Origin: an uncultured Desulfobacter sp.
GTDB lineage: Bacteria > Desulfobacterota > Desulfobacteria > Desulfobacterales > Desulfobacteraceae
Assembly (NCBI GenBank): GCA_963665095.1
Contig: OY762069.1
Location: forward strand, 1,248,001-1,312,000
Reading direction: 5' to 3'
Length of the DNA stretch: 64,000 nucleotides
Below are positions 30,763 through 54,713 of the stretch, in pieces. Positions within the stretch are counted from its first letter, which is position 1, and each line of letters opens with the position of its first letter. The notes beneath the pieces were generated by a model, which did not search any database, was not told the origin of the DNA, and saw only the letters and a list, made by a program, of their open reading frames with translations. The translations under genes were made by a program, and so were the position numbers.

Positions 30763-32055
30763 CTAACGACCTGATGGATCAGGCAGCATATCAATGATCT
30801 CTCCAAACGGCGGTAACACCCCACCCTGCCCCACCCTGACCCAGAGTACCGGATAGGCGGGGGCCTGTTCAGGAAAAGCCCGGCACTCAAGGTCGGTGAA
30901 ATAAATGAGGCAAAAAGGATAAATGCCGTTCGTCTCCACAAAATCAAACACAGCGCGGAAATCAGTTCCGCCACCACCCTTTGGTGTAAAACCTTGTGAC
31001 AGATCTGATGCAGAAACAAGTTCATATTTATTGACGGCCATATCTGCATATATGAGGTGGACAAGGCTTGGATTCATGGAAAGAATGGCTGACAGTTCAG
31101 CAGTAAACCTTGCCAGTTCAAGGGGTTTAATACTGCCGGAAGTATCCACAGCCAATACCATTTCAGGCAACTGGTCCGATACCAGGGAGGGCAGATATAA
31201 ATTCTGGTGAATATACCTGCGATTGGGCCGCGTCCAGGTATAATCCTGCCGGGCAGACTGCTGAATAAACCGGGCCAGAAGCGCATCCCAGGAAAGCGTG
31301 GGGCTGAAGCACTCCTTCACCAGAATATCCACCCCTTTAGGCAGTTGTCCCATGGCCCTGGCATTTGTGGCCGCCTGGATCAGGGCCTGATCCCAGTCCG
31401 TGCCGTTCTCCTCCTGGGCAGAGAAGCGCTTCTTTTTCGGTGATATTCCGTCTCTGACCTCACCGGAACCTCCGGGGTCTGAGGGGATGTCCTGATCATC
31501 TCTATCCGTTTCCATCCCCTCTCCAGAGTCAATGGAAGCCTGCGTTTTGTCTTCCTCTTCCTTATTTTTATCCTGATTATCTTTTTCGTCCAACGGCCGG
31601 GCGTCCGGATTATCCTGATCCTTTTTTCCATCCTCTGCCTGACCCTCTTTCAGAGTGCGGTACACCTGCTCTGCAGTTTTACCGGCATGGGCCTCGTCCC
31701 ATAAATACCCGTCCGGAAGCACCAGGCCTGCGTCCAGAAGAATGGGATTGATCGCATAGTCACATGCCTTGTTCCAGGTATGGGGATCACGGTTTTCCCG
31801 GCGCAGATGGTGACCGCAGGCCGGATGCATGACTGTGTGGGCGGACAGCCCCAAAAGCTTTTCCCGGGGAAGGATATTAATATAGTCAGGGTTATAGCCA
31901 AAGGTTTTACCGTCACTCCAGGCAGTCCGGCAGGTTCTGTCCTCCCGGAGGGTAAGGCGCATGGCAAGGGAGGCAAAAAAAGGATGATGCAACACCATGT
32001 CAGCCCTGGCCTTAAGCAGCCGCATTCTGGCCTTTTGATCCTTTACCTTCAACAT
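30763..32055 (-). CDS. DUF2201-type metallopeptidase-like plus vWA protein
   Basis: AHTVMH (degenerate HExxH), WN.ACDYAIN, DTSGS MIDAS, GGGGTDF, FTD. Confidence 0.88.
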   Translation of the reverse strand: MLKVKDQKARMRLLKARADMVLHHPFFASLAMRLTLREDRTCRTAWSDGKTFGYNPDYINILPREKLLGLSAHTVMHPACGHHLRRENRDPHTWNKACDYAINPILLDAGLVLPDGYLWDEAHAGKTAEQVYRTLKEGQAEDGKKDQDNPDARPLDEKDNQDKNKEEEDKTQASIDSGEGMETDRDDQDIPSDPGGSGEVRDGISPKKKRFSAQEENGTDWDQALIQAATNARAMGQLPKGVDILVKECFSPTLSWDALLARFIQQSARQDYTWTRPNRRYIHQNLYLPSLVSDQLPEMVLAVDTSGSIKPLELARFTAELSAILSMNPSLVHLIYADMAVNKYELVSASDLSQGFTPKGGGGTDFRAVFDFVETNGIYPFCLIYFTDLECRAFPEQAPAYPVLWVRVGQGGVLPPFGEIIDMLPDPSGR

Positions 32056-33038
32056 TACACCAGAATCTGTGCATTTAAGGATGCCCAGTCGGAAAAAGCC
32101 TTGGTATTGACCACCCCGGGTGTTTTTCGCACAGCCTCACGCATGAGAAGAACCGAAAACTCAGGAGGAAGACGTTTGCCCCAGGCCATGACAAAGGTTA
32201 TATTTTCAACTGTCATGGCCGCCCCCATCATTTCACTTAGAGCAAAAAGCACGGCCGGGTTATCGGGAATCTGGACACCGGCAGGATCAGAGAGGATATC
32301 GTCCACAGTGGGAAGCTGCTGCCATAATTCAAGAAATCCGGTGAATTCAGCTGCCGCACCTTTGCCTACGCTGCCGGCAACCAGCTCCGGGATTAAAACG
32401 GCGTCCGGCTCAGAATCCATGAGTCTGGAAACAAATTCCCAGGATCGTGGCGATGGAAAGGCTCTGGTTTCACGTTTGGGATCAAAATCATGCAGCAGGC
32501 TCGGCCTGAACCGGATAAAGGCTCTGACTTTACGTGAAATTCCGGTCTGGGCAGCCCACGCAAGCCACTGGTCCGGATCCACTTCAAAATCTATATGTAC
32601 AAACCGGTTTGCCAGGGCAGAGGGCATCCGGTGGGATACTGCCCGGTCCTGCTCCCGGTTACCGGCCGCCACCACTGACCAGCCGTCAGGCAGCTCATAC
32701 TCCCCAAGCCGCCGGTCAAGTACAAGCTGATAACAGGCTGCCTGGACAAGGGGTGGCGCGGCATTTAATTCATCCAGGAAAAGCACCCCTTTCCCCTCTG
32801 TTGGGAAAAATGACGGGGTACACCAGTGGGAGCGCCCGTCCGGACTGATTTTAGGCAAGCCCCGAAGGTCCACAGGATCCAGCAGAATGGCCCTGACATC
32901 AATGAGTGCCAGATCAAGATCATCTGCAGTCTGCCTGACCAGCTGGCTTTTTCCGATGCCGGGCGGTCCCCATATAAAAACAGGCTGAGCTATAGACAAA
33001 AGAGATGTAAGTGCCGGTTTAATCCGGGAAGGTTTCAT
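32055..33038 (-). CDS. MoxR-like AAA+ ATPase
   Basis: GPPGIGKS, LFLDELN, AAGN, ALANRF, SPRSW. Confidence 0.9.
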   Translation of the reverse strand: MKPSRIKPALTSLLSIAQPVFIWGPPGIGKSQLVRQTADDLDLALIDVRAILLDPVDLRGLPKISPDGRSHWCTPSFFPTEGKGVLFLDELNAAPPLVQAACYQLVLDRRLGEYELPDGWSVVAAGNREQDRAVSHRMPSALANRFVHIDFEVDPDQWLAWAAQTGISRKVRAFIRFRPSLLHDFDPKRETRAFPSPRSWEFVSRLMDSEPDAVLIPELVAGSVGKGAAAEFTGFLELWQQLPTVDDILSDPAGVQIPDNPAVLFALSEMMGAAMTVENITFVMAWGKRLPPEFSVLLMREAVRKTPGVVNTKAFSDWASLNAQILV

Positions 33039-33195: not shown

Positions 33196-33224
33196 TTGAC
33201 ATTCAAAAAAAGCCGGTGTAGGAT
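33196..33224 (+). promoter_or_regulatory. Sigma70 promoter of the FMN-riboswitch leader
   Basis: TTGACA(33196-33201)-17bp-TAGGAT(33219-33224). Confidence 0.75.
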
Positions 33225-33229
33225 CGCTG

Positions 33230-33258
33230 CCGTTCTCAGGGCGGGGTGAAATTCCCCA
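33230..33258 (+). ncRNA. 5' fragment of an FMN riboswitch (RFN), truncated at the prophage junction
   Basis: TTCTCAGGGCGGGGTGAAATTCCCCA matches the RFN 5' consensus; the expected CCGGCGGT continuation is absent. Confidence 0.82.
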
Positions 33259-33289
33259 GATGATAAGAAAGATGTGGTTATAAATTCAG

Positions 33290-34594
33290 TTATTTAGCTA
33301 TTTTCTGACCGTCTGAAAAGTTTATCAAAAGTTTATCACTTTTAGCGGCGTCTTGCATTTCAGCAAGTTGGCGGGTGGCTGTGATCGCGTCTTGGTGGTC
33401 TGGCAGAAAGTATCTATAAAAGGCGTCTGATGCGTGGCCGGTAACATTGTTTTTAATTTGCTCTGGTGACATGATCCGCCCCAGGGCTGTGGTGGTAGAA
33501 TGCTTTGTGCCTGGGTACACAGGTACAGATTCAATTCCAAGGTTTTTAGCCGCCCTTTTCCACCATTCATTGAAAAGCTGGTCCCCAAACTGCCCGCCGG
33601 CCTTTTTCCCGCGCCCCTGTTTTAGATGCCGGAAAAAATAAACATCCGGCAACGTTGGCGGAGCCATGTTTCTAACCTCCTTGATCATATTTATATGTTC
33701 TGGAAGCAGGTGTATAAATTTAGGGTCACGTTCTTTAGGTTGCGGGAAAACTACCCACCCGTCTGATAAATTAATATGCCCCTCTTTAACATTCCTCATT
33801 TCCCCGGGCCTGACCTTAGGATACATGGATAAGAGCTTTATTCCCAACCATATGCGCGGATTTTTCTTCCATGTCAACCGCCGCAATTCGTCTAAAATCG
33901 CCTGCTGGTCTTCCATGGAAACAAGTGTCCGCATTTTCATGCGATAGCTGATTTCTGGGATATCTGGCATTTCTAATTTTGACCGTCTCTTTTCCCGACG
34001 CACAACCCATTTAAAAAAATCATTTAAAACAGAGCGCATACCGGCCAAGGTCTTTTTTGATATCGGCCCCAGGTCCACCATTTTGGTGGTCCCATCCGGC
34101 ATTCGCCTTTTCTGAATATTGCGATGGTCAAAGGATAGAAAATCATCTATTTCCGCGTCTGAAATCTGCTTGATCTGCAAACAATCCCATATCAACCCGT
34201 GATAATCGCTCTTGAATTCACCGGCCCGAGTAAGAACCTTTTTGATTCTATAAACTTGATCTGGCTTGATATCTTGCGTGGATTTAACTTGGGTGAATTT
34301 TTCGCGCAATGCATAAAAGGATAGCGGGTTTTCTTTCGCCCATTCCCTTTGATCAAACTCCCCCCGGTCTGTTTGTACTCTCAAAAAAGTTAAATGTCTT
34401 TCTGCTTCACCTACGGTTTTAAACCGCTTTGTGTGCTTTTTCCCAAATCGAACTTGACACGGCCCAGCCCATTGAATTTCCTGATGATTGGGGCAAGCCA
34501 TAAATCCCCGCCCCTCAATATACTTTAGTAATCCTTTCTGACCATTCTGCTGACATAGGAAACATTTTTGACTTGTATAAATAGAACCCTTCAT
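33290..34594 (-). CDS. Atypical tyrosine integrase of prophage 2
   Basis: VRPGE, GTKHS (in place of HxxR), TGH, Y; tandem AAAAGTTTATC x2 at 33316-33337 as putative arm sites. Confidence 0.8.
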   Translation of the reverse strand: MKGSIYTSQKCFLCQQNGQKGLLKYIEGRGFMACPNHQEIQWAGPCQVRFGKKHTKRFKTVGEAERHLTFLRVQTDRGEFDQREWAKENPLSFYALREKFTQVKSTQDIKPDQVYRIKKVLTRAGEFKSDYHGLIWDCLQIKQISDAEIDDFLSFDHRNIQKRRMPDGTTKMVDLGPISKKTLAGMRSVLNDFFKWVVRREKRRSKLEMPDIPEISYRMKMRTLVSMEDQQAILDELRRLTWKKNPRIWLGIKLLSMYPKVRPGEMRNVKEGHINLSDGWVVFPQPKERDPKFIHLLPEHINMIKEVRNMAPPTLPDVYFFRHLKQGRGKKAGGQFGDQLFNEWWKRAAKNLGIESVPVYPGTKHSTTTALGRIMSPEQIKNNVTGHASDAFYRYFLPDHQDAITATRQLAEMQDAAKSDKLLINFSDGQKIAK

Positions 34595-35443
34595 ACAATA
34601 CCCGCCTTGATTAAGGTTATTGGCTGGATTGTTGTAAAATGGTTTATAATTCATCGTCAAGATTCGTTTCCCAAATGGTAAACGGCCGGGTAAAAAATAT
34701 ATACCCGGCCACGGGTCTGGATTTATGCCTTATCCATCGTTGATATTTTGAAAGAAAATTCCGTCAATTCTTCCGGAACTTCCATTCCTAAATCTTCATA
34801 AAGCGAAAGCACACCTTTAATAATAGCCGCGAATATTTGGAAAGTTTGCTTCTTGTTTGCTTCATACTCCCTGATCAAATTTTGAACTGTATTTTTAGGT
34901 TCTCTGATGACAACCCTTGCGCCCAAACCAAGGTTAAATTCAGCATTCAGGCGTTTTACATTGGTGGCCCGAACTGGGAAGCCAAGGAACCTTGAGGCCC
35001 TTGCAGCCACGTCTTCCATAGCTACCACGGCCAAGGCGTCATTGTTATCAGTTAAAAATTTATGCAGTTCAACGGTTTGCGGATAGCTCAAAGTGTTCTT
35101 TTTCATAATTTTTATATCTCCTTATTTTTAAATCGTCCTTCACTAAGCCTTGCAGGGGCATACCGTTCTATCATGTCTGAATTTGCCCCAAGCTCTTTTA
35201 ATGTGGCCTTTATACTTTGGCCGCCTGGTGCCCAATAACGGTATTTGGCAGGGGCGTTAAAAGGAATGATTAAATCACCATTTCCGCTTATATATGGCGG
35301 CGTCCACCCATCTTTATTATTCGTGCTTTCATGGATGATTTCACAAAGCCATTTAATTTCAAGGGTTTTCATTTCTGCAGGAGACTTGTTCATTAATCCT
35401 GTTTCGTTTAGCCTGGTGGCCAGGTGGTTAAGATTAATATTCA

Positions 35444-37105
35444 TCAAACCCCCAAAAAAGATTCAATTTTAGAACGGTTAAAATGAAAGGTGAGATATGC
35501 CGCCGCTTCCCCCTTTGACAGTATGGAAACACCGCCAAACTGGGCTAAGGTTTCCAGTTGCCTGGGGCTTGCCGGATCTGTTGGCCATTTGGCAGCCTTG
35601 CGGCTATTTGATGCTGTTTCGTGTGTCCTCATCCAATCGTCTGCCGTGGCCACGGCCCCAAGCCGGTTAGTTTGGCCAAGGTGTCTGACTTCACGGCCTT
35701 TCCCACCAATTGAATGCCAGCTTTCTGAATCCGGGGAACATATGGCCGCCCAGGCTTCAAAGCCGGTGGCTACCATAAGGTTTTCGCTACCCCATAATGG
35801 ATACCACCGGAACGGACTTTTACTGATTAATTCAATTTCAATTAATCTTAATTCCGCCTCTTCATTGTAAACACCTTCGATCAATTCAACCTTGAATTCA
35901 TACCCGCAAAGGGGGCAAGTCATGGTTTGCACTGGCAACATTGCTTCACAATCCGGGCAGGTTTTTTTCCGGGCTTCAGATTCCTTTCCGGATTCTCCAC
36001 CATCGTCTTTCAGTTTTACAGTGCTGCTCAAATTGCCGATGGATATCAAGGTGATCCCAAAATCAAGCACCAAGCAATCAGACTTGATAAAACCGGGGTG
36101 TTTTTCAGGGTCTACTTTCCTAAGGCCCCGGCCCACCATTTGGATGGCCGTTGACTTATGGCTTGACGTTCTAAGCAGCATAACACAGGAGCATATTTGA
36201 CAGTCCCAGCCTTCCGTTAAAATCATGGGGTTGCACAAGACCGGAATTTCTCCCCGATCAAAGGCGGACAAGATTTCACGGCGGCGTGTAATACCTATTT
36301 TACCGTGAACGGATTCCGCCTCTATTCCGTGTTCTCTGAAAGCATTGCGAACATCTTCCGCGTGCTGAATGGTGGAACAAAAGGCAACCGTGGGGCGGCC
36401 CTGGGCCAGTTCAAGCCATTGGCCAACAATTTGCCCATTGTTATAATTAGTATTTTGGATAGCTTCAACTTCGGCCTGGTCAAAATCATTGGCTGTTTTC
36501 TTAACGTTTTTAAGTTGACTTTGGGTGCCAATATCAATAACCATTGCCGTGGGTGGAACCAGGTGTCCAGCTTGCACCATTTCTTCAATTGTTACCACAT
36601 CGGCGACATTGGAGAACGTTTTCCTCAGGCCCCGCCGGTCTGACCGTTCAGGGGTAGCCGTGACTCCTAAGATTTCAGTCTCCCGGTTGAGTTCCATTGC
36701 GCGGCCGATAACGCGCCTGTATGAATCGCTGGCCGCGTGATGTGCTTCATCAACTACCAGTAAATCAAAAGGCGGCAATGTGGATAGGTGGCTTTCCTGG
36801 CTTAACGTTTGCACCATTGAAAAGACGGTTTGCCCGCCCCAAGATTTGGTTTCAGCGTTAAAAAAGGAAATTGGGATAGTAGGGTTCACCAACTTGAATT
36901 TATCCGAATTCTGCCGGGTCAATTCATCACGGTGGGCCATAATTAAGGCCCGTTTTTGTTTTTTGATACGCTGGCCAGTTGCAGCGGAAAGGGCTATAGT
37001 TTTCCCAAAGCCTGTATTGGCAACCCCCAGGGTGTTCTTTTCTTTGGATAGTGCCTTGCAGCATTTATAAACAAAGATTTTTTGACGGGGTCTAAGAATA
37101 ATCAT
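35444..37105 (-). CDS. DEAH-box SF2 helicase with zinc ribbon
   Basis: TGFGKT, DEAHH, TATPER, QMVGRGLR, CPDC/CPLC. Confidence 0.92.
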   Translation of the reverse strand: MIILRPRQKIFVYKCCKALSKEKNTLGVANTGFGKTIALSAATGQRIKKQKRALIMAHRDELTRQNSDKFKLVNPTIPISFFNAETKSWGGQTVFSMVQTLSQESHLSTLPPFDLLVVDEAHHAASDSYRRVIGRAMELNRETEILGVTATPERSDRRGLRKTFSNVADVVTIEEMVQAGHLVPPTAMVIDIGTQSQLKNVKKTANDFDQAEVEAIQNTNYNNGQIVGQWLELAQGRPTVAFCSTIQHAEDVRNAFREHGIEAESVHGKIGITRRREILSAFDRGEIPVLCNPMILTEGWDCQICSCVMLLRTSSHKSTAIQMVGRGLRKVDPEKHPGFIKSDCLVLDFGITLISIGNLSSTVKLKDDGGESGKESEARKKTCPDCEAMLPVQTMTCPLCGYEFKVELIEGVYNEEAELRLIEIELISKSPFRWYPLWGSENLMVATGFEAWAAICSPDSESWHSIGGKGREVRHLGQTNRLGAVATADDWMRTHETASNSRKAAKWPTDPASPRQLETLAQFGGVSILSKGEAAAYLTFHFNRSKIESFLGV

Positions 37106-38354
37106 TTTTAACCGGCCCCCCAATGATACCAAGCGTGATACCCGGAACGTCTACCCCCTTTATAATTATAGCGGTTTCCTGGCCATTAGAGAGAATCAGT
37201 TCAAGAGATCCGGGGGCTGATCTTGCAATCATGGCCTTTATGGTATTTACTCTTTCTTCTTTGGCATCATTTACGGTTTTTCTTATATGGTTGTTGACAG
37301 GTTGCGCCATGGCGGCCGGCGATACTGCAGGAGCGGCCGGGCGTGGGGCTACTTTTTTTTCGTTCGGGACCACGGGGGCCGGTTTGGGTTCCTGTTTAAC
37401 CGCCGGCTGTAGCGCCTTAGTTTTATCAATAATCGCCCGGGCCTGGTTTATCTGAGTTTCCACCAATCCGGCAAGATGCGGGGCCGGAATCAAAACTTCA
37501 AGCTTTCCAAGGGCCTCCTCCATGGTTGCAAGGCTGGCCATTATCCCGAAGTTATCATTAAACCAGGCTACTTGATTGACCCGTTCCGATTCTAATTCAA
37601 GTCTTTTTAATTCCGCCTGTTTTTCTTCATGGATAACTGCCGCCTGATGTGCAAGTCTGGCCTTTTCGATGGAAACATTTAAAAGGCCGCAGGCATCTTG
37701 AAATTTTTCCTGGAATATCTCCTGGTTAATGCCTGTTGTTTCCAAAACGCCCAGGGCGCTTTTTATCTCAACCGCAGAAAGGCCAGGTTTTAAGGCATCA
37801 TTGCATAGGTCAACCAAGGTGTTATAATTTTTATTTAAGAGATCTAACCGTATTCTTTCAACCCTGGCCTGTTCATCTTCCCACTTTTTAATTTCAGAGG
37901 ACAAATGATCTTCGGTCGCCTTAATGTCAGTCACCAGGGCGGTAGCATCATCTTTAATGTTTTTTCTCTTTTTATTCAGGTCTGCTATCAACTCCTTTTC
38001 ACGCCGCTGGATTTTCAGGCGTAACCCCCGAACTTCGGTTTTTGCTTTTTTAATTTCAGTGAAAGTTTTTTTGTCCTCAAGATTCACAGTTAGGGATAGA
38101 TATACCTTTATTTCGGCCAGTGCTGCAGCTTGAATGTCATATCGGGTTAGAGCTGTTGGCGGAATGCCGGGCATGATTTCCGCGCGGGCTCCCGGCGTGT
38201 TCGGCGTCGACTGAATCACCTGGGCGGCCTGGGGGGGGGGCTGTTCTTTCAATGGGCCAAAATCCTGCCCACTCACCGGTTTAGCTTTACCCATTGGCAT
38301 CAGTTTTTGACCTGGGCAGGGATAATATTTTCTTCCATTGTTAAAATCACTCAT
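37092..38354 (-). CDS. Coiled-coil phage protein
   Basis: Long ORF in the early operon with heptad-rich middle. Confidence 0.6.
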   Translation of the reverse strand: MSDFNNGRKYYPCPGQKLMPMGKAKPVSGQDFGPLKEQPPPQAAQVIQSTPNTPGARAEIMPGIPPTALTRYDIQAAALAEIKVYLSLTVNLEDKKTFTEIKKAKTEVRGLRLKIQRREKELIADLNKKRKNIKDDATALVTDIKATEDHLSSEIKKWEDEQARVERIRLDLLNKNYNTLVDLCNDALKPGLSAVEIKSALGVLETTGINQEIFQEKFQDACGLLNVSIEKARLAHQAAVIHEEKQAELKRLELESERVNQVAWFNDNFGIMASLATMEEALGKLEVLIPAPHLAGLVETQINQARAIIDKTKALQPAVKQEPKPAPVVPNEKKVAPRPAAPAVSPAAMAQPVNNHIRKTVNDAKEERVNTIKAMIARSAPGSLELILSNGQETAIIIKGVDVPGITLGIIGGPVKNDYS

Positions 38355-38424
38355 GTGCCTTTTCTCCTTTCGTGTTTAATTACTCGGGTGTTTCCAAAGT
38401 GGTAATTACCCGGGTAAAAAAAGG

Positions 38425-39207
38425 TTATTTATTTGGCATCCATTGCGGTGGTTGGCCAGGACCATTGCATCCTTGTGGGGGTGTTTGGTATTGCTGTGAA
38501 TGTGGCGCTCCTTGTGCCTGGTGTGGTTGCTGGTATGTCTGGCCCGATTGTGCCGATGGGGCCTGATAGGATGGCGGTTGCTGATATCCACCCGCCTGGG
38601 CGGCACCCTGCCCGTTTGCGGCGGGGATTTCTGGCAGGGGTTTATCAGTGATAATCTGTCCACCGGCCATGACCGTTTTATAATCCTGCTCATCTTCAAG
38701 GGTAATTACTTTGAACAGGCTGTTATTAATGTACTGGTCGCCTGGCTGGGGTTTTTTAACGCTCACCATTGCCGGGAACTCCATCCCCTGAAAATGATCT
38801 GGCCCAACCCCTGTTTTTGCCTGCATGGCTTCCGGCGATCCATCGGCTGGATGTATTCCCCGGGCGGCCTCAACAATTGCGCGCATCTTTGCACCGCCGC
38901 CTTTGCAAGTGCCTGCCTGGCCTTTATCTATACCCTGAACCTGCATATTAACTGGAAGAAAAATATAATCATAAAATTTATTCCCATTATATTCGCCTTG
39001 GGAAATTACCTCAAAGACACAATCAAAGCCCACCAGCGGAACCCCACTATTTTTGCCTGGTTTGAATGTTCTGACGAGTGGATGAATGGCGCTTGTGCTG
39101 CCATTATCTGGCTTCCGTATTGAAAGCCGGACCTTGACTATTGATCTGTCAGGAATACAACCGCCCCCGCCGGTTTTCTGTTCTGATTCATTGTTCAAAT
39201 CAAACAT
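38425..39207 (-). CDS. Phage SSB-like protein
   Basis: Next to Sak4; Q/G/P-rich tail ending PQWM. Confidence 0.65.
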   Translation of the reverse strand: MFDLNNESEQKTGGGGCIPDRSIVKVRLSIRKPDNGSTSAIHPLVRTFKPGKNSGVPLVGFDCVFEVISQGEYNGNKFYDYIFLPVNMQVQGIDKGQAGTCKGGGAKMRAIVEAARGIHPADGSPEAMQAKTGVGPDHFQGMEFPAMVSVKKPQPGDQYINNSLFKVITLEDEQDYKTVMAGGQIITDKPLPEIPAANGQGAAQAGGYQQPPSYQAPSAQSGQTYQQPHQAQGAPHSQQYQTPPQGCNGPGQPPQWMPNK

Positions 39208-40045
39208 TGTCTTGATTCTCCTGTTTAATGGTTGCGGGCATGGGATAGCGCCCGTTTGTTGCTTTATTCAGGGCGGTATGGAATCCGCCCCATGTCTTAT
39301 CTTGACCAATGTAAATTTCAGACGGCAGGCCCCAACGGTTTTTAGCCAAAAACGCGGGTCTTTCTTCCGTGTGGATGAGACGTTCCCCGGTACCTGTGCC
39401 GCGTCTTTTTTCTTGGTTGAATCCCGTTTCCGTTCTTTCAATGACAGTTCGATAGCGACAGAACAAAACCATATCAACCCATTCTTGCCAAAGCGCAAAA
39501 GCCCGCTTATGTAATTTAATCTGGTATCTGTCATATGGTTCTGTGTCTGGGGCGGCAAAGTTTTTTATCTCAGAATGGGCGATTAAAATAATATTCATCT
39601 GCTTAACTTTGAGTAAGTGTTCGAGCCAGTTCATAAGGTTTAGCCATGGCGCATCAGCTTCAATATATCCCTTTCCATATCCAAAACTTTCAATACTGTC
39701 TTGACCCTTTGCGGCACAAGTCTGGGAATGTATCAGGGGCTCAGTCCAATCCAGGGAATCAATAACCAGGCTTTTATACTGGTGCGATTCACTGAGAAGC
39801 CACTGAACCATATTGATAATGGTATTGTATCCTGACCCGCGGGCAAGGCGGCCTTCGTCATCATAGCTATCCTTTACAACCATTGGGAATGTATCAATAT
39901 CCACATTGCTGGCCCCGTCTTCCGTCCTCAAAAGAATAGCCCCTTCAAAGGTGGCTCCAAAAGTTGTCTTTCCCAGGCCGTGGGTGCCGTACAATAAAAT
40001 CCTTTGCGGCTGCCATTCGGCGTTAGCTTTAACAGGTTGAAACAT
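39200..40045 (-). CDS. Sak4-like AAA_24 ATPase/recombinase
   Basis: YGTHGLGKTT, VIDSLDW, GYGKGY, AKNR. Confidence 0.88.
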   Translation of the reverse strand: MFQPVKANAEWQPQRILLYGTHGLGKTTFGATFEGAILLRTEDGASNVDIDTFPMVVKDSYDDEGRLARGSGYNTIINMVQWLLSESHQYKSLVIDSLDWTEPLIHSQTCAAKGQDSIESFGYGKGYIEADAPWLNLMNWLEHLLKVKQMNIILIAHSEIKNFAAPDTEPYDRYQIKLHKRAFALWQEWVDMVLFCRYRTVIERTETGFNQEKRRGTGTGERLIHTEERPAFLAKNRWGLPSEIYIGQDKTWGGFHTALNKATNGRYPMPATIKQENQDNV

Positions 40046-40176
40046 TTCAATCTCCTTGATACTTTTAAATTACAATTAACTTCACGGTATCGTTTACGAT
40101 TTGGTAAAAACAAAGACAAACAAAAAGGGCGGCGCGGCAGGCCGGCCCCATATTCAAAAAAATAAATTGGGCTTTT

Positions 40177-40587
40177 CTATTCTTCCTCTTTTTCTTTTTG
40201 CGCCTTGGCCTTCCTAACGATGCCCATAAGCGCGTCATATGGGTCAATACCCAAGCTTTCTAACTCATGCCATACTTTCCGGGCTTTAGGATTTTTATAA
40301 AATTGCATATCAAGGATATGTGCCTTGCCTGCATCAGACATTTCAACATTTTTAACAATATCTTCCGCCATGATAATCCCTTCTCCTATCAATATGGCCA
40401 AGTGTTTTTCAGTCACAGGGCGGCCATATTTCTCGAAATTTTTAAGTTCAGTGAAGCGGGTTTGAACAATGCCAGTTTTTTCTGATAATTCTTTGTCGAG
40501 CCAACCGTCATCATTTAACCGTTCAAGTTTTTTACCAAGATATACTGTGATATCTTCATACAATTTTTTTTTGTCAATTTTCCGCAT
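40177..40587 (-). CDS. XRE-type repressor of prophage 2
   Basis: KELSEKTGIVQTRFTELKN HTH; divergent from the rightward lytic arm. Confidence 0.6.
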   Translation of the reverse strand: MRKIDKKKLYEDITVYLGKKLERLNDDGWLDKELSEKTGIVQTRFTELKNFEKYGRPVTEKHLAILIGEGIIMAEDIVKNVEMSDAGKAHILDMQFYKNPKARKVWHELESLGIDPYDALMGIVRKAKAQKEKEEE

Positions 40588-40682
40588 TTTGAATACCCTT
40601 TCAAGTTTATTTCTTTTATTTTTTTGCTTGTCTTTTTTCACACAGTTTCCTTTTAGCACGTGGATTTTTTTAATGTCAAGAT

Positions 40683-40763
40683 AATTTACCAAATAATTTA
40701 CATTTTAATTTACCAAATAATTTACCAAACGGTATTGACATTTACCAAATTGTAAACTATACG
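40683..40763 (+). promoter_or_regulatory. Divergent control region with TTTACCAAA repeats and an operator in the promoter spacer
   Basis: Four TTTACCAAA copies; TTGACA(40735)-17bp containing TTTAC-N6-GTAAA. Confidence 0.65.
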
Positions 40764-40800
40764 GTGAAATATCGGGAAAAACCAAGTAGGGAAACGTCAA

Positions 40801-41163
40801 ATGAATGATTTAGAAATCAAGGAAAATATGTATCTTGGGGCTTTATGTCGCCGTGGCCATGATTATCAGGGCACAGGTTGTTCAGTAAGATACAAAAACA
40901 AGGGGGCATTAAAGGGCGGCATCTGTATTCTCTGCAATCGTGAAAATAAACGGAAGAATGCAAAGGCGAAAGGCGGGGCCGGGAAACGGCGCGGTAAAAA
41001 TACCCGAATATCCGCAATCTGCCCCATGTGTAGAGCTATACACATGGTTTATATGGCAAGTGGTTGGGCAGGTAACGGTATCCCCAGAAAATACTGCCCG
41101 AATTGCAACGGACAAAGAAAGAGATTGATAGAGGGGGAAATCAATTATGGCTATACAAATTGA
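40801..41163 (+). CDS. Cys-rich zinc-binding protein
   Basis: LCRRGH, CILC, CPMC, CPNC. Confidence 0.6.
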   Translation: MNDLEIKENMYLGALCRRGHDYQGTGCSVRYKNKGALKGGICILCNRENKRKNAKAKGGAGKRRGKNTRISAICPMCRAIHMVYMASGWAGNGIPRKYCPNCNGQRKRLIEGEINYGYTN

Positions 41164-41380
41164 GAAAGGCATTACCCGGATTTTCCTTTTAGCTGCTCTT
41201 TTTTTCTGGCCGTTTGGGTCGGTATACTATAAGTCGAGCATAACCGGACCGCTGCCCGTCTGGCCCTGGAAACAGAAAAGGTAAACGCTTTATATGTCAC
41301 CTTGAAACATTCAACTTTTGAGGTTTCCATAATCCCCACCAAGGCCCCAAAAGCATTAAAACCAAAAGAATGGAAATAAT

Positions 41381-42118
41381 ATGTTTAATCTTAATTCTGA
41401 AACAGATGTTTCCGCCCCCATAAATTACCTGATTGATTCAGCCCTTGAACTTGAGGAAGCTTTTTCAACGAAACGAAATTACCTGGGCGGCAGCCGGTTG
41501 GGCGTCCACTGTGAACGGGCTTTGCAATACGAGTTCACACACTACCCAGTAGACCCGGACAAGAGATTTCAGGGGCGTATTTTACGGGTGTTTTCAAGGG
41601 GCCATTGGGTTGAAGGTCTTATTATTGATTGCCTGAAAAAAGCTGGTTTTGGCATTATTACGGAATCGCGGGACGGCGGGCAATTCGGGTTTGTTTCCCA
41701 TGATGGCTATGTAAAAGGTCATTGTGACGGAATAATTTTGACCGGCCCGGAGCATTTAGGCCCATGGCCACGCTTGTGGGAATGTAAAGGCCTTGGCGCA
41801 AAATATTGGCGCGCCCTTGTTAAGCACAGGCTTAAAAAAGATAAACCAATTTATTACGCCCAGGTTCAGTTCTATATGGGGAAATTCGGCTTATCCGATA
41901 ATCCGGCAATTTTCTGCGCGGTGAACATGGATACAATGGAATTATATTGGGAAAGCGTGCCTTTTGACCCCGTTTTTTTTGATTCCTTGGAAAAAAAAGC
42001 TTGGCGGATTATTGATGCCTGCAGGGCTGAAAGCTTACTTCCCAGAGATAGCCAGGACCGAAATTTTTATAAATGTAAACTATGTTCATGGCGGATTGCT
42101 TGCCATGGGCCGGAATAA
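41381..42118 (+). CDS. PD-(D/E)XK (Cas4-like) exonuclease
   Basis: YLGGSRLG..CER, GHCDG, WECK, YYAQVQ.Y, C..C.W...C. Confidence 0.85.
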   Translation: MFNLNSETDVSAPINYLIDSALELEEAFSTKRNYLGGSRLGVHCERALQYEFTHYPVDPDKRFQGRILRVFSRGHWVEGLIIDCLKKAGFGIITESRDGGQFGFVSHDGYVKGHCDGIILTGPEHLGPWPRLWECKGLGAKYWRALVKHRLKKDKPIYYAQVQFYMGKFGLSDNPAIFCAVNMDTMELYWESVPFDPVFFDSLEKKAWRIIDACRAESLLPRDSQDRNFYKCKLCSWRIACHGPE

Positions 42119-42265
42119 ACTCGTTTAATGATAGGGGGGTGGAAAGAAGTATGAATAAGAATAAAAAAGCAATTTCATTCGTTAAAAGCCTGTCTATGGA
42201 ATATACCGGATAATCCTTTATGAGACTAAGCCGGAAACAACACGGATTTTAATATATTAAATGTA

Positions 42266-43048
42266 ATGAAATCACATTCAAAAATAAACGAATTGAGCCT
42301 TTTTTCAGGTGCCGGTGGGGGTCTCCTGGCGTCAAAATATATGCTTAATTGGAGGACTGTTGGATATGTCGAACAGAACAGCTATTGCCAGCACGTTATC
42401 AGACAGAGAATCCTTGACGGTCACCTCGATGATGCCCCTATCTATGGCGATATCAGAACATTCATTGATTCAGGATGTGCCGGGCTTTATCGAGGAATTA
42501 CGGACGTCATATCAGCCGGTTTCCCATGCCAGCCATTTAGCAGAGCAGGAAAAAAACAATGCGAAAAAGATGCCAGGAATAAATGGCCGGAAACGTCAAA
42601 ATGCATCGAGATTATTCGACCCCAAGCAATCCAACTGGAGAACGTCGCAGGGCTTGTTACCAATGGGTATATCAACACAGTGTTTAGTGACCTGGCCAGT
42701 CTCAGGTATGACTTTAGGTATGATGTTTTACCCGCTGCCGCCTATGGTGCCGACCATTTACGGAAAAGATTGTGGGTTATTGCCTACGCCAGTGGCATCG
42801 GACTGGAAACGGCAGGGCGTTACTTTAGAAACGGCTCAAAGGTACGTTGCAAATGGCCGGGGCGCGCCTCTCCCCCTAAAATTGACGTTATTGACAGGGT
42901 CAACAGGCATACCGAACCCCCGTTTTTACGAAAGTATGATGGGGTGGCCTCTTGGGTGGACAGAATTAAAGCCATTGGAAATGGTCAGCATTCAGGAGTG
43001 GCAGCGGGTGTATGGACTGATTTAACGGAATCAATTTATACCGGATAA
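42266..43048 (+). CDS. DNA (cytosine-5) methyltransferase, alpha chain
   Basis: LFSGAGG (I), GFPCQPFS (IV), ENV (VI), HLRKR (VIII), KAIGNG (X). Confidence 0.9.
   Translation: MKSHSKINELSLFSGAGGGLLASKYMLNWRTVGYVEQNSYCQHVIRQRILDGHLDDAPIYGDIRTFIDSGCAGLYRGITDVISAGFPCQPFSRAGKKQCEKDARNKWPETSKCIEIIRPQAIQLENVAGLVTNGYINTVFSDLASLRYDFRYDVLPAAAYGADHLRKRLWVIAYASGIGLETAGRYFRNGSKVRCKWPGRASPPKIDVIDRVNRHTEPPFLRKYDGVASWVDRIKAIGNGQHSGVAAGVWTDLTESIYTG
42309..43025 (+). CDS. Overlapping +1-frame ORF, putative beta chain carrying motif IX (true start uncertain)
   Basis: 238 stop-free codons; LPTPVASDWK and NPRFYESMMGWPLGWT. Confidence 0.65.
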   Translation: MPVGVSWRQNICLIGGLLDMSNRTAIASTLSDRESLTVTSMMPLSMAISEHSLIQDVPGFIEELRTSYQPVSHASHLAEQEKNNAKKMPGINGRKRQNASRLFDPKQSNWRTSQGLLPMGISTQCLVTWPVSGMTLGMMFYPLPPMVPTIYGKDCGLLPTPVASDWKRQGVTLETAQRYVANGRGAPLPLKLTLLTGSTGIPNPRFYESMMGWPLGWTELKPLEMVSIQEWQRVYGLI

Positions 43049-43091
43049 TCCTTTATGAGACTAAGCCGGAAACAACACGGATTTTAATATA

Positions 43092-43310
43092 TTATCTTGA
43101 TTTTTCATCGAAAAATATAAGGTATTTGTCAAGCATGTTAACAGACTGCAACCATATCAACGTCATGAGTAGCCGGGAGGGGGCGGCGGTTATGCCCTGT
43201 TCGCCCCTTTCCCATTTGAGCCATAAACCACGACTTACGCCCATGGCTTTTGCTATTTCTGTTTGCGACAGGCCCAGGGTTAACCGGGCCTGTTTTGGAT
43301 CCATTGACAT
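43092..43310 (-). CDS. XRE HTH protein (antitoxin-like)
   Basis: ARLTLGLSQTEIAKAMGVSR...WERG. Confidence 0.8.
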   Translation of the reverse strand: MSMDPKQARLTLGLSQTEIAKAMGVSRGLWLKWERGEQGITAAPSRLLMTLIWLQSVNMLDKYLIFFDEKSR

Positions 43311-43923
43311 TTCTTGTATCCTATTTTTTAACTTTTCTTTTTCGGCCGCCTTTAATTTGAGGTCTCATTTTATACCCACATTCGCTTACTCTAATCAACC
43401 CCCCTTCACCCATTGTGGTAAGCTTGCCAATCAAAGACATGATAGCCTGATTTTCAGCCTTAACCGTGGATGTCCCATCGTGATGGTGAGCAAGATAAGG
43501 GTAGCGGTGCATTGTTGTTGGGTACAAGTCAGGACAATTGTCTTTTGCCTCTTCTCTCATTGCATCTTCAATTACATCAGGATTGACTTTAAATTTCGCA
43601 CTCAACATGATTGTGATCCTTTCCGGCAGTTTAGCGACTTGCCGAGGTCGAGTGATTATAAAATTTTTTCGGCTATATCCAAGGCGTTTTCGGTAAGAAA
43701 CCAGTCTTTTCCATCTTTGCCAATTAAATTTTTTACTTCCATGCTTGAAAAAAGACCTCTTGCCTTGCCGCCTTAATGATTTTAATTTAGTCCCTATTAG
43801 GGACAATGTAAATAAAAAAGTTAATGAGATGTGTTTTTTTTACTATTGGCCAAAGGGAAGCAGTGCTTTTTTGTCCATTGATTTACCAAACTGGAAACTA
43901 AACAGAAAACAAAAAGATAAACC

Positions 43924-46032
43924 ATGCTGTTAAATCTAAATAATGAAGCCCGCCAACGTGAAGACAGACCGGGTACCGCCCCAGAAATTCAAGCAGACCC
44001 AGTGGAAAGTTTTCTGTCCCGCCTGGCTGAATTTGACTTATATCCGCCTGATATAAGACAGGATGGCAAGTTACACCGGTTTGCCGTTGGTGAATCCCGT
44101 AATCAGGCCGGGTGGTATGTCTTTTACCCTGGGGATGTTGCCGCCGGAGCCTTTGGAAATTGGCGAGAAAGTTTAACTGAAAAATGGTGTAGCGTTGATC
44201 CGCGAACGATGACATATGAACAGCGGGCTGAACGCGACCAAAAAATAAAGCTTGCCCAGGAGGCGGAACGGAAAGAACAGGAAAAGAACGAAACCGCCGC
44301 CCAAAAAAGGGCAAACGCGGTTTTAAATGCAGCCGCGCCGGTTATCGGCCAGGGGCATGAATATTTAAAGGCTAAGGGGGTTGATGCCCACGGCATATAT
44401 CTTTCCGCCCGTGGTGACTTGCTTGTCCCTATGGTGGATAAGAACCGCTGTCTTTGGAATGTGGAAGTAATCAAGGCCGGCGGCGGGCCTAAAAAGGGTT
44501 TGTTTGGCGGCCGGCGTAAGGGGGTATTCTTCACAATCCCCGGCCAACCTGGGAATAATAACCTTTTCATATGTGAAGGATATAGCACCGGGGCAACCAT
44601 TTATGAAAAGACCGCTGCAACGGTTATTTGCTCGTTCAATGCCGGTAACCTGCCTCACATTGCCCAGGATATTAAAGAGCTCTACCCAGCACATAATATC
44701 ACCATTGCGGCGGACAATGACCAATTCAGCAACGGGAAAAACGTGGGGATAGTTAAGGCTCAGGAAGCGGCAAGGGCTATTAGTGCCGGATTGACTTATC
44801 CTGCCTTCACTTTGGATCAAATAAGCACATGGCGGCGTTTAAATAATAATCAGGAAAAAGGCCCAACGGATTTCAACGATTTGGCGGCCTTAGATCCTGC
44901 AGCGGTGGTTGTTCAATTGGGGGAACGGGATAAAAAGGCCCCTGCCCTGCCGCCCCTTACCCCTGCCAATACCTCAATGATTAACTGGTTGCCTGCCAGG
45001 CCCCCCAATCGTGATTTTGTCTTTAATCTTTTCGGCAAACCAATGATGCCTAAGGGCGCGGTTGGTGTGCTGTCTGCCACGGGGGGGACGGGGAAAACAT
45101 TTTTCCTATTGGCCCTGGCTGCCATGGCCGCAAAGGGCGGTACCTTTGGTCCGATTTCTGCCGTGTGTCCTCTAAAGGTCTTGGTGATATGTGGGGAAGA
45201 TGATCAAGACGAAATAGGCCGGCGTATATGGGATATTACCGGCGGGAATATCCCGCCAAATTTGCATGCTGCCAGTGTTTATGGTGAGGTCGGCCCATTA
45301 ATGCGGCTTGAAAAGGGGGTTCCTGAAAGGGCGGCTGGGTTTTATTGGCTGGAAGAAACCTTGAAGAACCACCCAGGTATTGACCTTTTAATAATTGACC
45401 CGAAAAGCCGGTTTTATGGCCTGGACGAAAACAGCAACGATCATGCCACGGAATGGATAAGGTGCCTTGAATATTTATGTAAAGAATATGTTCCCAATAT
45501 TCTTTTTGCCGCTCATACGAGTCAGGGCGAAATGGGCCGAATTTCCCAAAAAATGAACAGGGGGGCCACGGCCATTATTGACGGATGCCGATGGCAGGCC
45601 GGCTTAGCCCAGATGGATCCAGACACGGCAGATAAATACCACATAGATAGCCCGCGGGACTACATAGCCTTTGACGTGCCGAAATCCAACTATTCCGCCC
45701 GACAACAAAACGCTATTTATTTTAAAAGGACCGATACCGGGGCCCTGGAGTATGTTGAACTCAAAATACCACAAAGCACCCAGGATGAAATAAACACCTT
45801 TCTTACCTTATTAAAAAATTCACATGAACAATTTACAGATAGAGATTTAAAAAAAGAGAAAATCGGAAAATCTTTCTTTAATTCCATGAAAGAAAATCAT
45901 CCAGATTTTAAGCGTGAGGATGGATTCAACCAATTGATAAATACCTGCCTTGGAACAGGTGTCATAAGACGAATTTGGATCGGCACAGGATCTGGAAGAA
46001 AAAACATACTTGAGGTTGTAGACAATGGGTGA
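43924..46032 (+). CDS. Primase-helicase (TOPRIM plus RepA-like AAA_25)
   Basis: CEGYSTG, AADND, TDFNDL; ATGGTGKT; IIDP. Confidence 0.9.
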   Translation: MLLNLNNEARQREDRPGTAPEIQADPVESFLSRLAEFDLYPPDIRQDGKLHRFAVGESRNQAGWYVFYPGDVAAGAFGNWRESLTEKWCSVDPRTMTYEQRAERDQKIKLAQEAERKEQEKNETAAQKRANAVLNAAAPVIGQGHEYLKAKGVDAHGIYLSARGDLLVPMVDKNRCLWNVEVIKAGGGPKKGLFGGRRKGVFFTIPGQPGNNNLFICEGYSTGATIYEKTAATVICSFNAGNLPHIAQDIKELYPAHNITIAADNDQFSNGKNVGIVKAQEAARAISAGLTYPAFTLDQISTWRRLNNNQEKGPTDFNDLAALDPAAVVVQLGERDKKAPALPPLTPANTSMINWLPARPPNRDFVFNLFGKPMMPKGAVGVLSATGGTGKTFFLLALAAMAAKGGTFGPISAVCPLKVLVICGEDDQDEIGRRIWDITGGNIPPNLHAASVYGEVGPLMRLEKGVPERAAGFYWLEETLKNHPGIDLLIIDPKSRFYGLDENSNDHATEWIRCLEYLCKEYVPNILFAAHTSQGEMGRISQKMNRGATAIIDGCRWQAGLAQMDPDTADKYHIDSPRDYIAFDVPKSNYSARQQNAIYFKRTDTGALEYVELKIPQSTQDEINTFLTLLKNSHEQFTDRDLKKEKIGKSFFNSMKENHPDFKREDGFNQLINTCLGTGVIRRIWIGTGSGRKNILEVVDNG

Positions 46033-46036
46033 TTCT

Positions 46037-46267
46037 TTGCGGAATTTTTACCTTTGCGGGGCTTCCGGAAGTTGCGGAATTTTATTGAATTCCGCAAAGA
46101 AACTTATTGAATTTATTAAAAATAATCGACAAATTCTTTGCGGAATTTGACCCTTGCGGATTTTAAAAATTCCGCAATGTAAGTTATTGAAATTATTACT
46201 TATGGATTGCGGAGCTTGCGGATTCCCCCTAAAGGGGGGAACAAGTAGCGGGCTTTAAAGCCCCGCT
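46037..46267. repeat. Iteron array and hairpins, probable origin of prophage 2
   Basis: Nine TTGCGG(A/G) copies in both orientations in AT-rich DNA, followed by two GC hairpins. Confidence 0.75.
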
Positions 46268-46318
46268 TATTGTCCCCATAGATTGAGTTTAAAAAACAAA
46301 AGAAAGGAGTGTTTGATT

Positions 46319-46717
46319 ATGGCAAAAACAAAAAATAATTCTCCCTTGGAAGAGTGGGAACAGGAACAGGTTTTTAAGTGGATATTATCAAACCAAATCA
46401 GGGAGCCAAAACTACAACTTGCCTATGGAACCCTAAACGGCGTTCGGTTGGCCCCCAGGCTTCGGTCAAAGATGAAAGCGCAGGGGAACAGGAAGGGCGT
46501 TCATGATATCGTGTTGCCGGCAAAAAGCCATTGCGGTAGATATCCTGGTCTTTATCTGGAATTGAAACGGCTCAAGGGCGGCCGGGTATCTGAGGACCAA
46601 AAAAGATATCACCAGCTGATAAAAGAACAGGGATATAAAAGCGTTGTTTGCAGGGGGCACTTTGAGGCGATACAAAAAATTGACGCTTATCTGGGCGGAA
46701 ATTTGCCCATTTTTTAG
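46319..46717 (+). CDS. VRR-NUC nuclease
   Basis: E..EQ, G.RKGV.DI, LYLELK, S..QK. Confidence 0.85.
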   Translation: MAKTKNNSPLEEWEQEQVFKWILSNQIREPKLQLAYGTLNGVRLAPRLRSKMKAQGNRKGVHDIVLPAKSHCGRYPGLYLELKRLKGGRVSEDQKRYHQLIKEQGYKSVVCRGHFEAIQKIDAYLGGNLPIF

Positions 46718-46774
46718 CGTTTATTATTTACCAGATTGTAAACTATACGGTAACCAACAAAAGGAGCTAAGAAC

Positions 46775-47500
46775 ATGAAAATCGTTAATCAGGGGCATAG
46801 AATTTTGAGCGTACCTAATAGTCTTGGATTGATCGAGCGTGCAGGGCGAACCTGCTACAAGTCGGAAAAGCATATGGGGTGCCTTGTGAACGGGAATTCA
46901 GATGGAGATTTGAACCCCACGGATATTGAAATTTGTGCATGGTATGACATTCACGGTGGTAGTGATTGCGGCATGGAAAGTTGTGAACACCATTCAAGTC
47001 AGGAGTTCGCCCGGAGGCTCATTAGAAGGGGGCATAATGCTATGCTCGAATTTGGGGATGTCGTAGTAAAATTTACAACCAATCGGGGTATCTCCCATGA
47101 ATTGGTTAGGCACCGCCTTTCAAGCTTCGCCCAGGAATCCACCCGATATGTCAAATACAGTGGTGAAATTGAATTTATTAGGCCCGAATGGATGAGCGAA
47201 GAATATACACGTGCTAAAGGGGCCTGGTTGTCTGCTATGGAAAAAATTGAAAGTGAATATTTATTTCTGCTGAAACATGGCCTTAAGCCTCAAGATGCGC
47301 GGGGCATCCTGCCCAATGATCTTAAAACTGAAATTGTTATGAAAGCGAATTTTAGAGAATGGCGGCATATTTTCAGTCTTAGGTGTGACAAGGCGGCCCA
47401 TCCTCAAATGGTGGCCCTGATGCGTCCTCTTTTGGCGGATCTTGCGGACCGGGTACCGGTTGTTTTTGAAGATTTGGCAGAAAGGTTTTTAACCTTATGA
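46775..47500 (+). CDS. thyX: FAD-dependent thymidylate synthase
   Basis: ELVRHRLSSFAQESTRY; AR.ILPN; NFREWRHIF.LR. Confidence 0.93.
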   Translation: MKIVNQGHRILSVPNSLGLIERAGRTCYKSEKHMGCLVNGNSDGDLNPTDIEICAWYDIHGGSDCGMESCEHHSSQEFARRLIRRGHNAMLEFGDVVVKFTTNRGISHELVRHRLSSFAQESTRYVKYSGEIEFIRPEWMSEEYTRAKGAWLSAMEKIESEYLFLLKHGLKPQDARGILPNDLKTEIVMKANFREWRHIFSLRCDKAAHPQMVALMRPLLADLADRVPVVFEDLAERFLTL

Positions 47501-47913
47501 AGACGGCTCCTAAAAATAACCAGATAGAGGGGAAGCCGCACCCGTCTTTGATTCCTATGGATATTTTAATGAATCATTTATGCCCTGCATATGATGAGGG
47601 ATTAAAAAAATATTATCGTGAATCTTGGCGGCTTGGGTTTCCCGTTTCCGTTTCATTCGATGCTATGCAACGGCATGCCATACATTTTTTTTATTTTGGT
47701 GAAGATATTGACCCTGATTCCACAACAATGAAACATCATTTATCAGGTGTAATTTTCAATGCTATTTGCATATTGAACACCCTTGAACAAAGGCCTGATT
47801 TAGATGACAGGCCAGCGAAAGGAAAGAAAAAATGTTTAAATTCTCAAAGCGGTCAAAACAGAATATGGAAGGCATTGATTCACGCCTGCAGGAAATTGCT
47901 GAAAAAGCAATAA
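47497..47913 (+). CDS. dATP/dGTP diphosphohydrolase-like (DUF5664)
   Basis: G..KY..ESWR.G, AMQRH, GEDIDPDS...HHL, DDRP. Confidence 0.75.
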   Translation: MKTAPKNNQIEGKPHPSLIPMDILMNHLCPAYDEGLKKYYRESWRLGFPVSVSFDAMQRHAIHFFYFGEDIDPDSTTMKHHLSGVIFNAICILNTLEQRPDLDDRPAKGKKKCLNSQSGQNRIWKALIHACRKLLKKQ

Positions 47914-48215
47914 AAATAAGCCGGGTTGATTTCGGCATTCCAGGGGATGGCGGGCTAAGAACGGACAGGCAGCAATATAATTTATTTCTTGATGGCAAAT
48001 CAATGTGTGATGGATGTTTCAAAATTAGCAAGCACCAGAACGGCAAGGCTCTTGATTTTTATGCATATGTTGATGGTAAGGCTTCATGGAATGAATTTGA
48101 CTTAACCATGGTTGCCGCCGCTCTTTTATGCGCCGCCTGTATCCTTGGTTATAAAATTACCTGGGGTGGATTTTGGACGTTTAAAGACCTACCACATATA
48201 GAACTCATAGAATAA
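47832..48215 (+). CDS. M15-family endolysin (L-Ala-D-Glu peptidase)
   Basis: GLRT..QQ, SKHQ.G.A.D, WGG.W.F.D.PHIEL. Confidence 0.88.
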   Translation: MFKFSKRSKQNMEGIDSRLQEIAEKAIKISRVDFGIPGDGGLRTDRQQYNLFLDGKSMCDGCFKISKHQNGKALDFYAYVDGKASWNEFDLTMVAAALLCAACILGYKITWGGFWTFKDLPHIELIE

Positions 48216-48363
48216 AAAAAACAATATGTAGTTGAATAATCCACAAATAAAAAATATAAGGGATTCATGATTAGCGTTTACCAAAAAATAAACGATTGGG
48301 TAAAAGGCGGTGTTCATGTAATCTCCTTGGTGTGTCTGGTGAGGCCTGCCGGAATAATCCGGC

Positions 48364-48404
48364 GGGTCCTTCCCAGGCTTTTCTTTTTGGGTCGGCGGAA
48401 CCCC
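48364..48404 (+). other. Putative cos region (cosQ-like heptamer plus GC-rich cosN-like dyad)
   Basis: GGGTCCT at 48364-48370, then GGGT-CGGCGGA-ACCC, just upstream of a Nu1-like gene. Confidence 0.5.
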
Positions 48405-48444
48405 GATCTTTCACTTCATACCAGCTTTTTAGGGCTTCCCTACA

Positions 48445-50962: not shown

Positions 50963-50963
50963 C

Positions 50964-51209: not shown

Positions 51210-51210
51210 T

Positions 51211-54466: not shown

Positions 54467-54474
54467 GTCTTTTC

Positions 54475-54710: not shown

Positions 54711-54713
54711 CGC

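Follow-up and report, generated by a model that had tools for sequence, protein, structure and literature searches.

The prophage that begins at position 33259 of the window (the whole stretch of 64,000 nucleotides analyzed, G000:C1:1248001-1312000, G000 being this genome, a single contig of 6.9 Mb) very probably derives from a temperate phage that uses the FMN riboswitch preceding ribB as its attB, recognizes this site by mimicry of a T-loop, and exchanges the promoter of the host gene upon integration. The case is read from the duplicated core, the riboswitch rebuilt at the far end, the gene order at the empty site of relatives, the distribution of targets within the integrase family, the nesting of its tree, and the spacing of the attachment sites. 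In the proposed mechanism, an integrase of the tmRNA/tRNA T-loop family would have shifted onto the P2 hairpin as the same kind of DNA target (G-run, 7-bp T-loop, C-run), and one clade would have been retargeted while keeping its att architecture (arm pair, IHF-like site, 66-bp spacing). Since the RNA has this T-loop near its 5′ end, a promoter and the first strand have to come from the phage; between arm sites and core, it would carry this strand of the riboswitch together with a promoter of sigma70 type. Integration would leave just a 27-bp stub attached to the native promoter and move the remaining switch and ribB 37.8 kb away, the lysogen would have an intact switch under the phage promoter, and decay would remove the left end while the phage promoter is retained.

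The left end of the prophage lies beside a host gene for an AAA ATPase (32055..33038, minus strand; Pfam AAA_5), which has a VWA partner downstream and marks the host side. Past this gene, the promoter-like site TTGACA-17-TAGGAT (33196..33224, plus strand) stands at the same spacing from the core as the TTGACA-17-TAGTAT of relatives with an empty site. Matches of this type occur at chance frequency in the promoter scan; the one at 33196-33224 aligns with the native FMN promoters of the relatives, and is the candidate native promoter of the riboswitch and ribB, orphaned in the lysogen and head-on to the integrase gene. It is followed by the attL core (33232..33258, plus strand), a 27-bp 5′ fragment of the FMN riboswitch comprising the 5′ strand of P1, J1/2, and the P2 hairpin. 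With cmscan it registers as an RF00050 match that is truncated, about 90 model positions being absent (24.3 bits, E = 0.0018 in 501 bp). The attL copy is a stub with no complete aptamer, hence no switch. The integrase stop codon (33290-33292, minus strand) lies 31 bp past the end of the stub, within an IHF-like site (33284..33296, plus strand; two mismatches to the consensus), and the 3′ end of the gene contains the tandem arm-type sites AAAAGTTTATC (33316..33337, plus strand; GTTTATC twice, with an 11-bp period). The sequence-only reading had described this promoter, a riboswitch 5′ signature ending at 33258, an integrase stop codon about 30 bp further, and tandem arm-like sites, and each of these is present. 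Across the 6.9-Mb genome, the 18-bp core is found in just two places and the tandem GTTTATC-N4-GTTTATC in three, all of the latter being attachment ends of this integrase family. There is no tRNA or tmRNA gene in the window, the att core being RF00050, and no Rfam match in the window reaches its cut-off; a match to STnc260 over the region was dismissed, as it is far under the cut-off of that family. No terminator-like site was found, and it is plausible that the orphaned promoter fires antisense into the integrase gene.

The partner of the core lies beyond the window. The 27 bp of 33232-33258 recur exactly, at a distance of 37,798 bp, at G000 1319030-1319056 (plus strand), which is the attR core. 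The earlier reading had proposed to look at the far end of the prophage for a duplicated core and the rest of RF00050 upstream of rib genes, and both are found there, in front of ribB. A search for RF00050 over the whole genome gives one full match, at 1319026-1319188 (plus strand), covering positions 1-138 of the model with 115.3 bits against a gathering cut-off of 66.2; the attL stub is the second best match, and this genome-wide search shows no second full riboswitch. Pairing of P1 is still possible in the rebuilt riboswitch, and a stand-alone ribB (1319341-1319997, plus strand) starts about 150 bp past it. The minimum free energy fold of this leader is no better than those of shuffled sequences (z = -1.5) and was set aside. 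Repeats can mislead assemblers, and one could imagine an assembly artefact, or a chance duplication of the riboswitch with no link to a phage. Nothing else was found in favor of this explanation, and it is exceedingly improbable: the repeat is short (27 bp), the junction is spanned by one contig of run X3 (which may be the source of this DNA), and genome G014 has the same layout with a different sequence.

Immediately before the attR core are tandem arm sites and a phage-borne promoter-like sequence TTGACA-17-TAATCT (1318966-1319017, plus strand), the latter being placed between the arm pair and the core. Given a complete aptamer before ribB, attR is predicted to function as an FMN-regulated switch in the lysogen, and integration is probably a promoter swap, not an off-switch. 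Lysogeny had been proposed to part the rib leader from its promoter unless attP rebuilds it. This holds for the native promoter, but the riboswitch is not left broken, as the phage end rebuilds the aptamer completely. The suggestion that integration and excision switch flavin metabolism is correspondingly weakened, since the aptamer is rebuilt, a promoter-like site is brought in, and a second host operon without riboswitch (nrdR-ribD-ribE-ribBA-ribH) is present elsewhere in the genome. Because of this operon ribB is an extra copy, and hence the physiological stake is probably modest. An inverted repeat spans the start of ribB, which suggests that the gene is under translational control. It could still be argued that the same integration turns ribB on and off, or dims it, the phage-side site being weak, repressed, or a terminator, and the gene silent until excision as in SpyCI (see following). 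The -10 element TAATCT indeed matches the consensus at three of six positions and is absent from the picks of the promoter scan, and an 11-bp inverted repeat extends across the spacer and the -10, followed by a T run, so that an operator or a terminator is possible. Yet five other genomes, whose only visible promoter ahead of the switch is of this kind, retain the -35, the spacer of 17 bp, and the TA of the -10. They show no evident inverted repeat, and ribBA elsewhere blunts any switch; we therefore consider a switch or dimmer quite unlikely. A C4 antisense RNA (RF01695; 48 bits, cut-off 45) lies near the right end of the prophage, at G000 1318681-1318767 (L001:1156-1242, minus strand).

The choice of a riboswitch becomes less surprising when the DNA of the targets is compared. 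The tmRNA and tRNA targets of the family read GGG-TTCAAYT-CCC, and the P2 dyad reads GGGG-TGAAATT-CCCC (33243..33257, plus strand), with a 7-nt T-loop at 33247-33253. From the available parts of the sources, the loop of the FMN riboswitch is a T-loop with consensus (UGHAA)UU, which TGAAATT fits (bioRxiv 10.1101/2022.12.26.521914), and in tRNA genes a T loop is known to serve as a subsite for crossover (PMC4383910). The arm pair starts 66 and 77 bp past the loop at the FMN attL of G000 and of G014, at the tmRNA element of G000, and at two viral attP-like loci (67 and 78 bp at a third). Because the distance at attL equals that of the T-loop in the tmRNA element of the same genome, the loop register is fixed. 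More generally, tandem 7-mers begin 62-67 bp past the loop in 26 of the 29 family loci with a T-loop, and the first IHF-like match has the same offset, 30 bp past the loop, in 19 of these 29. The cut site would lie somewhere within the 27-bp block of identity, and loop register and spacing fit the T-loop subsite. From the arm spacing we infer a 7-bp crossover on the T-loop of P2, in register with the T-loop of tRNA and tmRNA, and the integrase would have moved to a DNA look-alike of its former target. On the upstream side, the distance from arm to loop is 61 bp at the attR of G000, against 51, 51, 41, and 41 in tmRNA and tRNA members, i.e., about one helical turn over 51 bp. G014 also has matching arms before its full riboswitch copy, at 85 bp, which is off the 41/51/61 series. 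Tandem arms are found at both ends of the core and an IHF-like site at a conserved offset, the binding of the integrase to the arms and of IHF to its site being putative. Counts of P2 base pairs were uninformative, as the pairs never vary.

The integrase itself (33290..34594, minus strand; 434 aa) is divergent. It has no Pfam match at the cut-off, Phage_integrase being reached only at E = 0.023, and matches a PHROG of integrases at E = 6e-12. Its AlphaFold model (pLDDT 86) has IntI4, XerA, and lambda Int as best Foldseek matches (E = 3e-9 to 3e-8), and the protein is by its modeled structure a tyrosine recombinase with core-binding and catalytic folds. The catalytic set of integrases of the lambda Int type is R-K-HxxR-H/W-Y. 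Here the candidates are R262, K287, K364 (in place of the second Arg), H388, and Y395. Among 34 aligned proteins (the query and 33 of 120 listed homologues), R262, K287, H365, and Y395 are invariant, these residues being assigned by alignment and not by structure superposition; H388 is mostly retained, and the HxxR position is PGTK or GGTK in the family, with the R retained in distant members. The GTKHS sequence noted earlier is thus present, but does not mark a new target, as the motif is family-wide and tmRNA-targeting members have it too.

The names attached to homologues of this integrase suggest sulfate reducers of the Desulfobacterales type. Homologues occur in 43 of 161 genomes of the bacterial family, and 31 loci were available (those obtained for 30 of the 43 genomes, plus the second copy in G000). 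By motif, and in a count made without the close homologues P0003, P0005, P0006, and P0007, their targets are the 3′ end of tmRNA (21), tRNA-His (6), the FMN riboswitch (2), and none (2); ARAGORN confirms five of these labels. The FMN pair consists of the present integrase and a 78% homologue in G014, a genome of another species, both 31 bp from a truncated riboswitch copy. An independent pattern search finds the core in 43 of the 161 genomes, with two copies only in G000 and G014, the only two where both ends are visible (on separate contigs in G014). In the integrase tree (20 full-length locus proteins and 9 database proteins, with 11 shorter ones left out, and midpoint rooting), the FMN pair forms one clade (ultrafast bootstrap 97) nested beside tmRNA-targeting integrases (support 100). 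On this topology, FMN targeting is a recent retargeting within a tmRNA/tRNA family, and the prophage would work like, and descend from, elements targeting tRNA and tmRNA, though its attB is RF00050. The use of the FMN riboswitch as attB, as first proposed from the sequence, is thus borne out by the duplicated core, by the remainder of RF00050 before ribB, and by the closest homologue with genomic context, which is also at an FMN fragment; the expected association with such fragments does not extend to most other homologues (2 of 31 loci). The family is mostly found at tmRNA and tRNA, and the tmRNA site of G000 is occupied by a 66% relative, so that a tmRNA-specific integrase might have inserted just once at a secondary site. 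This is very improbable, because what precedes the loop at the phage end is riboswitch sequence and a promoter-like site, with no piece of tmRNA, and because the 78% homologue sits at the same site in another species. The relative at the tmRNA belongs to a 22.6-kb element (G000 2158358-2180943; L070) with the same GTTTATC arms, and the two integrases might cross-talk through their common arms. At another locus, L202, there is a tRNA-His-type att core downstream of the integrase, with a second tRNA-like fragment within 200 bp before it.

Among 24 congeneric genomes examined, 21 have the riboswitch. In 5 of these 21 the AAA gene, a promoter, a full riboswitch, and ribB are contiguous within 1.5-kb flanks, and by its gene order this is the empty site. 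Another arrangement is found in G012, G024, G010, G006, and G020, which have one copy of the core, an intact switch, and a phage-type arm with TTGAC-17-TA 61-62 bp before the loop. Four of these five are among the 83 genomes of the family that are at least 95% complete, and the module is seen in none outside the genus. Likeness among the five modules stops after about 70 bp, upstream of which are unrelated cargo or IS genes. Four of the module genomes have the AAA gene, and in none of them does the native promoter stand behind it. On the trees of ribB and of the riboswitch body the five genomes are scattered, and their monophyly is rejected (p-AU 2e-6), which rules out arm-type promoters as the mark of one host clade. 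The simplest reading is repeated integration followed by decay, with the phage promoter being kept. Alternatively, and this concerns only the domestication of the promoter, the 70-bp arm-promoter module may have started as an allele of the host promoter, been disseminated by recombination, and then been picked up by the phage. No attL, close integrase, or phage structural gene is found beside the module in the stretches examined, both native and phage promoter types carry CAGGG.TTGAC, and the phage-side promoter of G014 resembles that of its own host, so that promoter capture from hosts does seem to occur. A host origin is nonetheless unlikely. Members that target tmRNA likewise have the GTTTATC tandem as their arm, so that it did not originate at an FMN promoter. 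The arm-to-loop distance of the module is one helical turn over that of the tmRNA element (61 versus 51), and in all four genomes open to this comparison no native promoter is left behind the AAA gene and foreign cargo or IS precedes the module. Repeated integration and decay is hence the reading we retain. Among native-type genomes, G003 shows one lone TTTATC, at a distance of 62 bp. In G012, the AAA gene and the relic promoter are separated by cargo that includes a VRR-NUC gene and a TsiV immunity gene (L065:4307-5836), and in G010 a c-di-GMP-I riboswitch lies about 330 bp upstream of the FMN riboswitch, on the opposite strand (L013:666-747).

Searches beyond the genus show that the habit of attaching to FMN riboswitches is narrow and rare. 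Neither a single-protein viral search nor the INPHARED phages gave a relative of the integrase. An alignment-based viral search gave 18 homologue loci, 8 with the T-loop motif (7 of tmRNA type and 1 of tRNA-His type) and none of the 18 with the FMN core, and no viral contig has the arm-promoter-core pattern. In a sample of the order, the truncated pattern is absent from the 400 other genomes, G000 being alone among 401. A metagenome scan gave six matches, i.e., five intact riboswitches and L111, which has the same junction as G014 and is so no independent case. A GTDB scan for truncated cores, whose pattern misses about a quarter of possible stubs as well as variant cores, gave 54 loci. Most of these are either intact switches that carry one additional base or fortuitous matches in protein-coding sequence; L144 repeats the junction of G014, and only L168 resembles a new attL. 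Two FMN 5′ stubs, at L128:2201 and L117:2201, are fused directly to remnants of rib genes and look like deletion scars of the riboswitch and the front of the gene. Nine viral contigs have the FMN 5′ motif, six in intact switches and three in near-identical stubs (L106, L107, and L109). The latter end right past P2, are flanked by tandem repeats, and adjoin an unrelated tyrosine integrase, whose sole relative found (32% identity, in 1 of 301 genomes) abuts tRNA-Thr; the site is attP-like, with an FMN 5′ core (L109:1176-2600, also in L106 and L107), and one of the contigs has 205 kb. In G177, a stub (C62:1511-1594; L174) and a full riboswitch before ribD (C72:533-664; L170) share a near-identical 70-bp promoter region, and are probably the ends of another island; they are on separate contigs, where no integrase was seen. 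Both this probable island and the L106/L107/L109 phage, each known from one mapped end, break right past the P2 hairpin of the FMN riboswitch, as at attL.

Several known systems have parts of this arrangement, as far as the available portions of the cited reports describe them. Elements in tRNA and tmRNA genes (Islander, PMC4383910) also have a tyrosine integrase beside the att core, a crossover subsite in the T-loop, restoration of the interrupted RNA, and frequent switches of target; here, by contrast, the phage targets a cis-regulatory riboswitch and displaces its 5′ end along with the promoter (159 Islander islands have a 5′ fragment versus 3760 with a 3′ fragment, PMC4383910). Phage HK022 at torS-torT of E. 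coli replaces the native promoter by one of the prophage, and host metabolic regulation can be reset; there, however, the site is intergenic and the effect measured, whereas here the core is a conserved riboswitch, ligand control is rebuilt, and the effect is predicted (PMC6814406). In Streptococcus pyogenes strain Manfredo, a promoter of SpyCI, an element in mutL, rescues a downstream host gene after decay of the element (PMC3430984). SpyCI silences mutL when integrated, and its rescue promoter is cryptic inside int (PMC3430984), in contrast with the dedicated promoter-like site that is in the att arm from the start here and recurs in several lineages. The attB of Enterococcus phage phiEf11 also lies in a structured RNA other than tRNA, but ffs (4.5S RNA) is a trans-acting housekeeping RNA (PMC12540744). 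The attB classes given in the available part of that work are coding genes, tRNA/tmRNA, csRNA, and intergenic, with no riboswitch, and riboswitches are not named as targets in the corresponding parts of PMC12540744, PMC13626063 (with one supplement), and PMC12884075. No report of a riboswitch attachment site was found in the literature searched, and large att tables may list such sites unremarked. As judged from these partial sources, what appears to be new is the FMN riboswitch as attB, the replacement of host promoters by prophages being known from HK022 (PMC6814406) and SpyCI (PMC3430984).

The system offers a traceable case of target change by an integrase, in which a common T-loop makes a riboswitch resemble, as DNA, the arm of a tRNA. 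Such mimicry predicts further targets, namely other T-loop RNAs, and residues to probe. It also follows that tools restricted to tRNA and tmRNA when searching for att sites miss such elements, and that truncated riboswitch matches can be att scars. Phages would have here a way of altering which promoter drives a metabolite-sensing host gene, for the time of lysogeny or, once the element has decayed, for good. We lean, if slightly, toward the broader view that T-loop riboswitches are a recurrent and overlooked class of phage attB, reached from tRNA and tmRNA targets through T-loop mimicry, with the L106/L107/L109 phage and the probable island of G177 as independent instances, and that such phages, obliged to carry a promoter, drive promoter turnover; within this genus they would have supplanted the native riboswitch promoter for good on several occasions (5 of the 21 genomes).

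The prophage body (33259..64000, continuing to G000 1319029) contains, by Pfam and PHROGs, replication genes, ThyX, a lambda-type terminase, portal, and capsid, and a contractile tail. The integrase and the replication, packaging, head, and tail modules all lie in the 37.8 kb between the att repeats, and no repressor was identified in the prophage with these types of libraries. The gene content is that of a temperate tailed prophage, for which excision and inducibility are predictions. Four of the 15 listed runs entered a check of contigs. Flat contig depth in run X3 is uninformative on excision. Three further studies (runs X7, X9, and X12) have contigs that agree with the host side to about 99% or better as far as 33258; these contigs do not cover the DNA past this point, none joins across, and they were discounted as support for an empty junction. 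An exact 58-bp direct repeat (42202-42259 and 43037-43094) flanks the C5 methyltransferase gene of this prophage, as in an exchangeable cassette, and a diverged inverted copy of it occurs at about G000 5206300. The other prophage of the window, noted at 25970-27164, is of the usual kind and sits at tRNA-Lys(CTT): 57 bp at 27108-27164 repeat the 3′ part of the tRNA at G000 1238976-1239063, about 9 kb ahead of the window. Past that element, in intergenic DNA at about 27400, a long T run is joined to a long G run, possibly a sequencing artefact.
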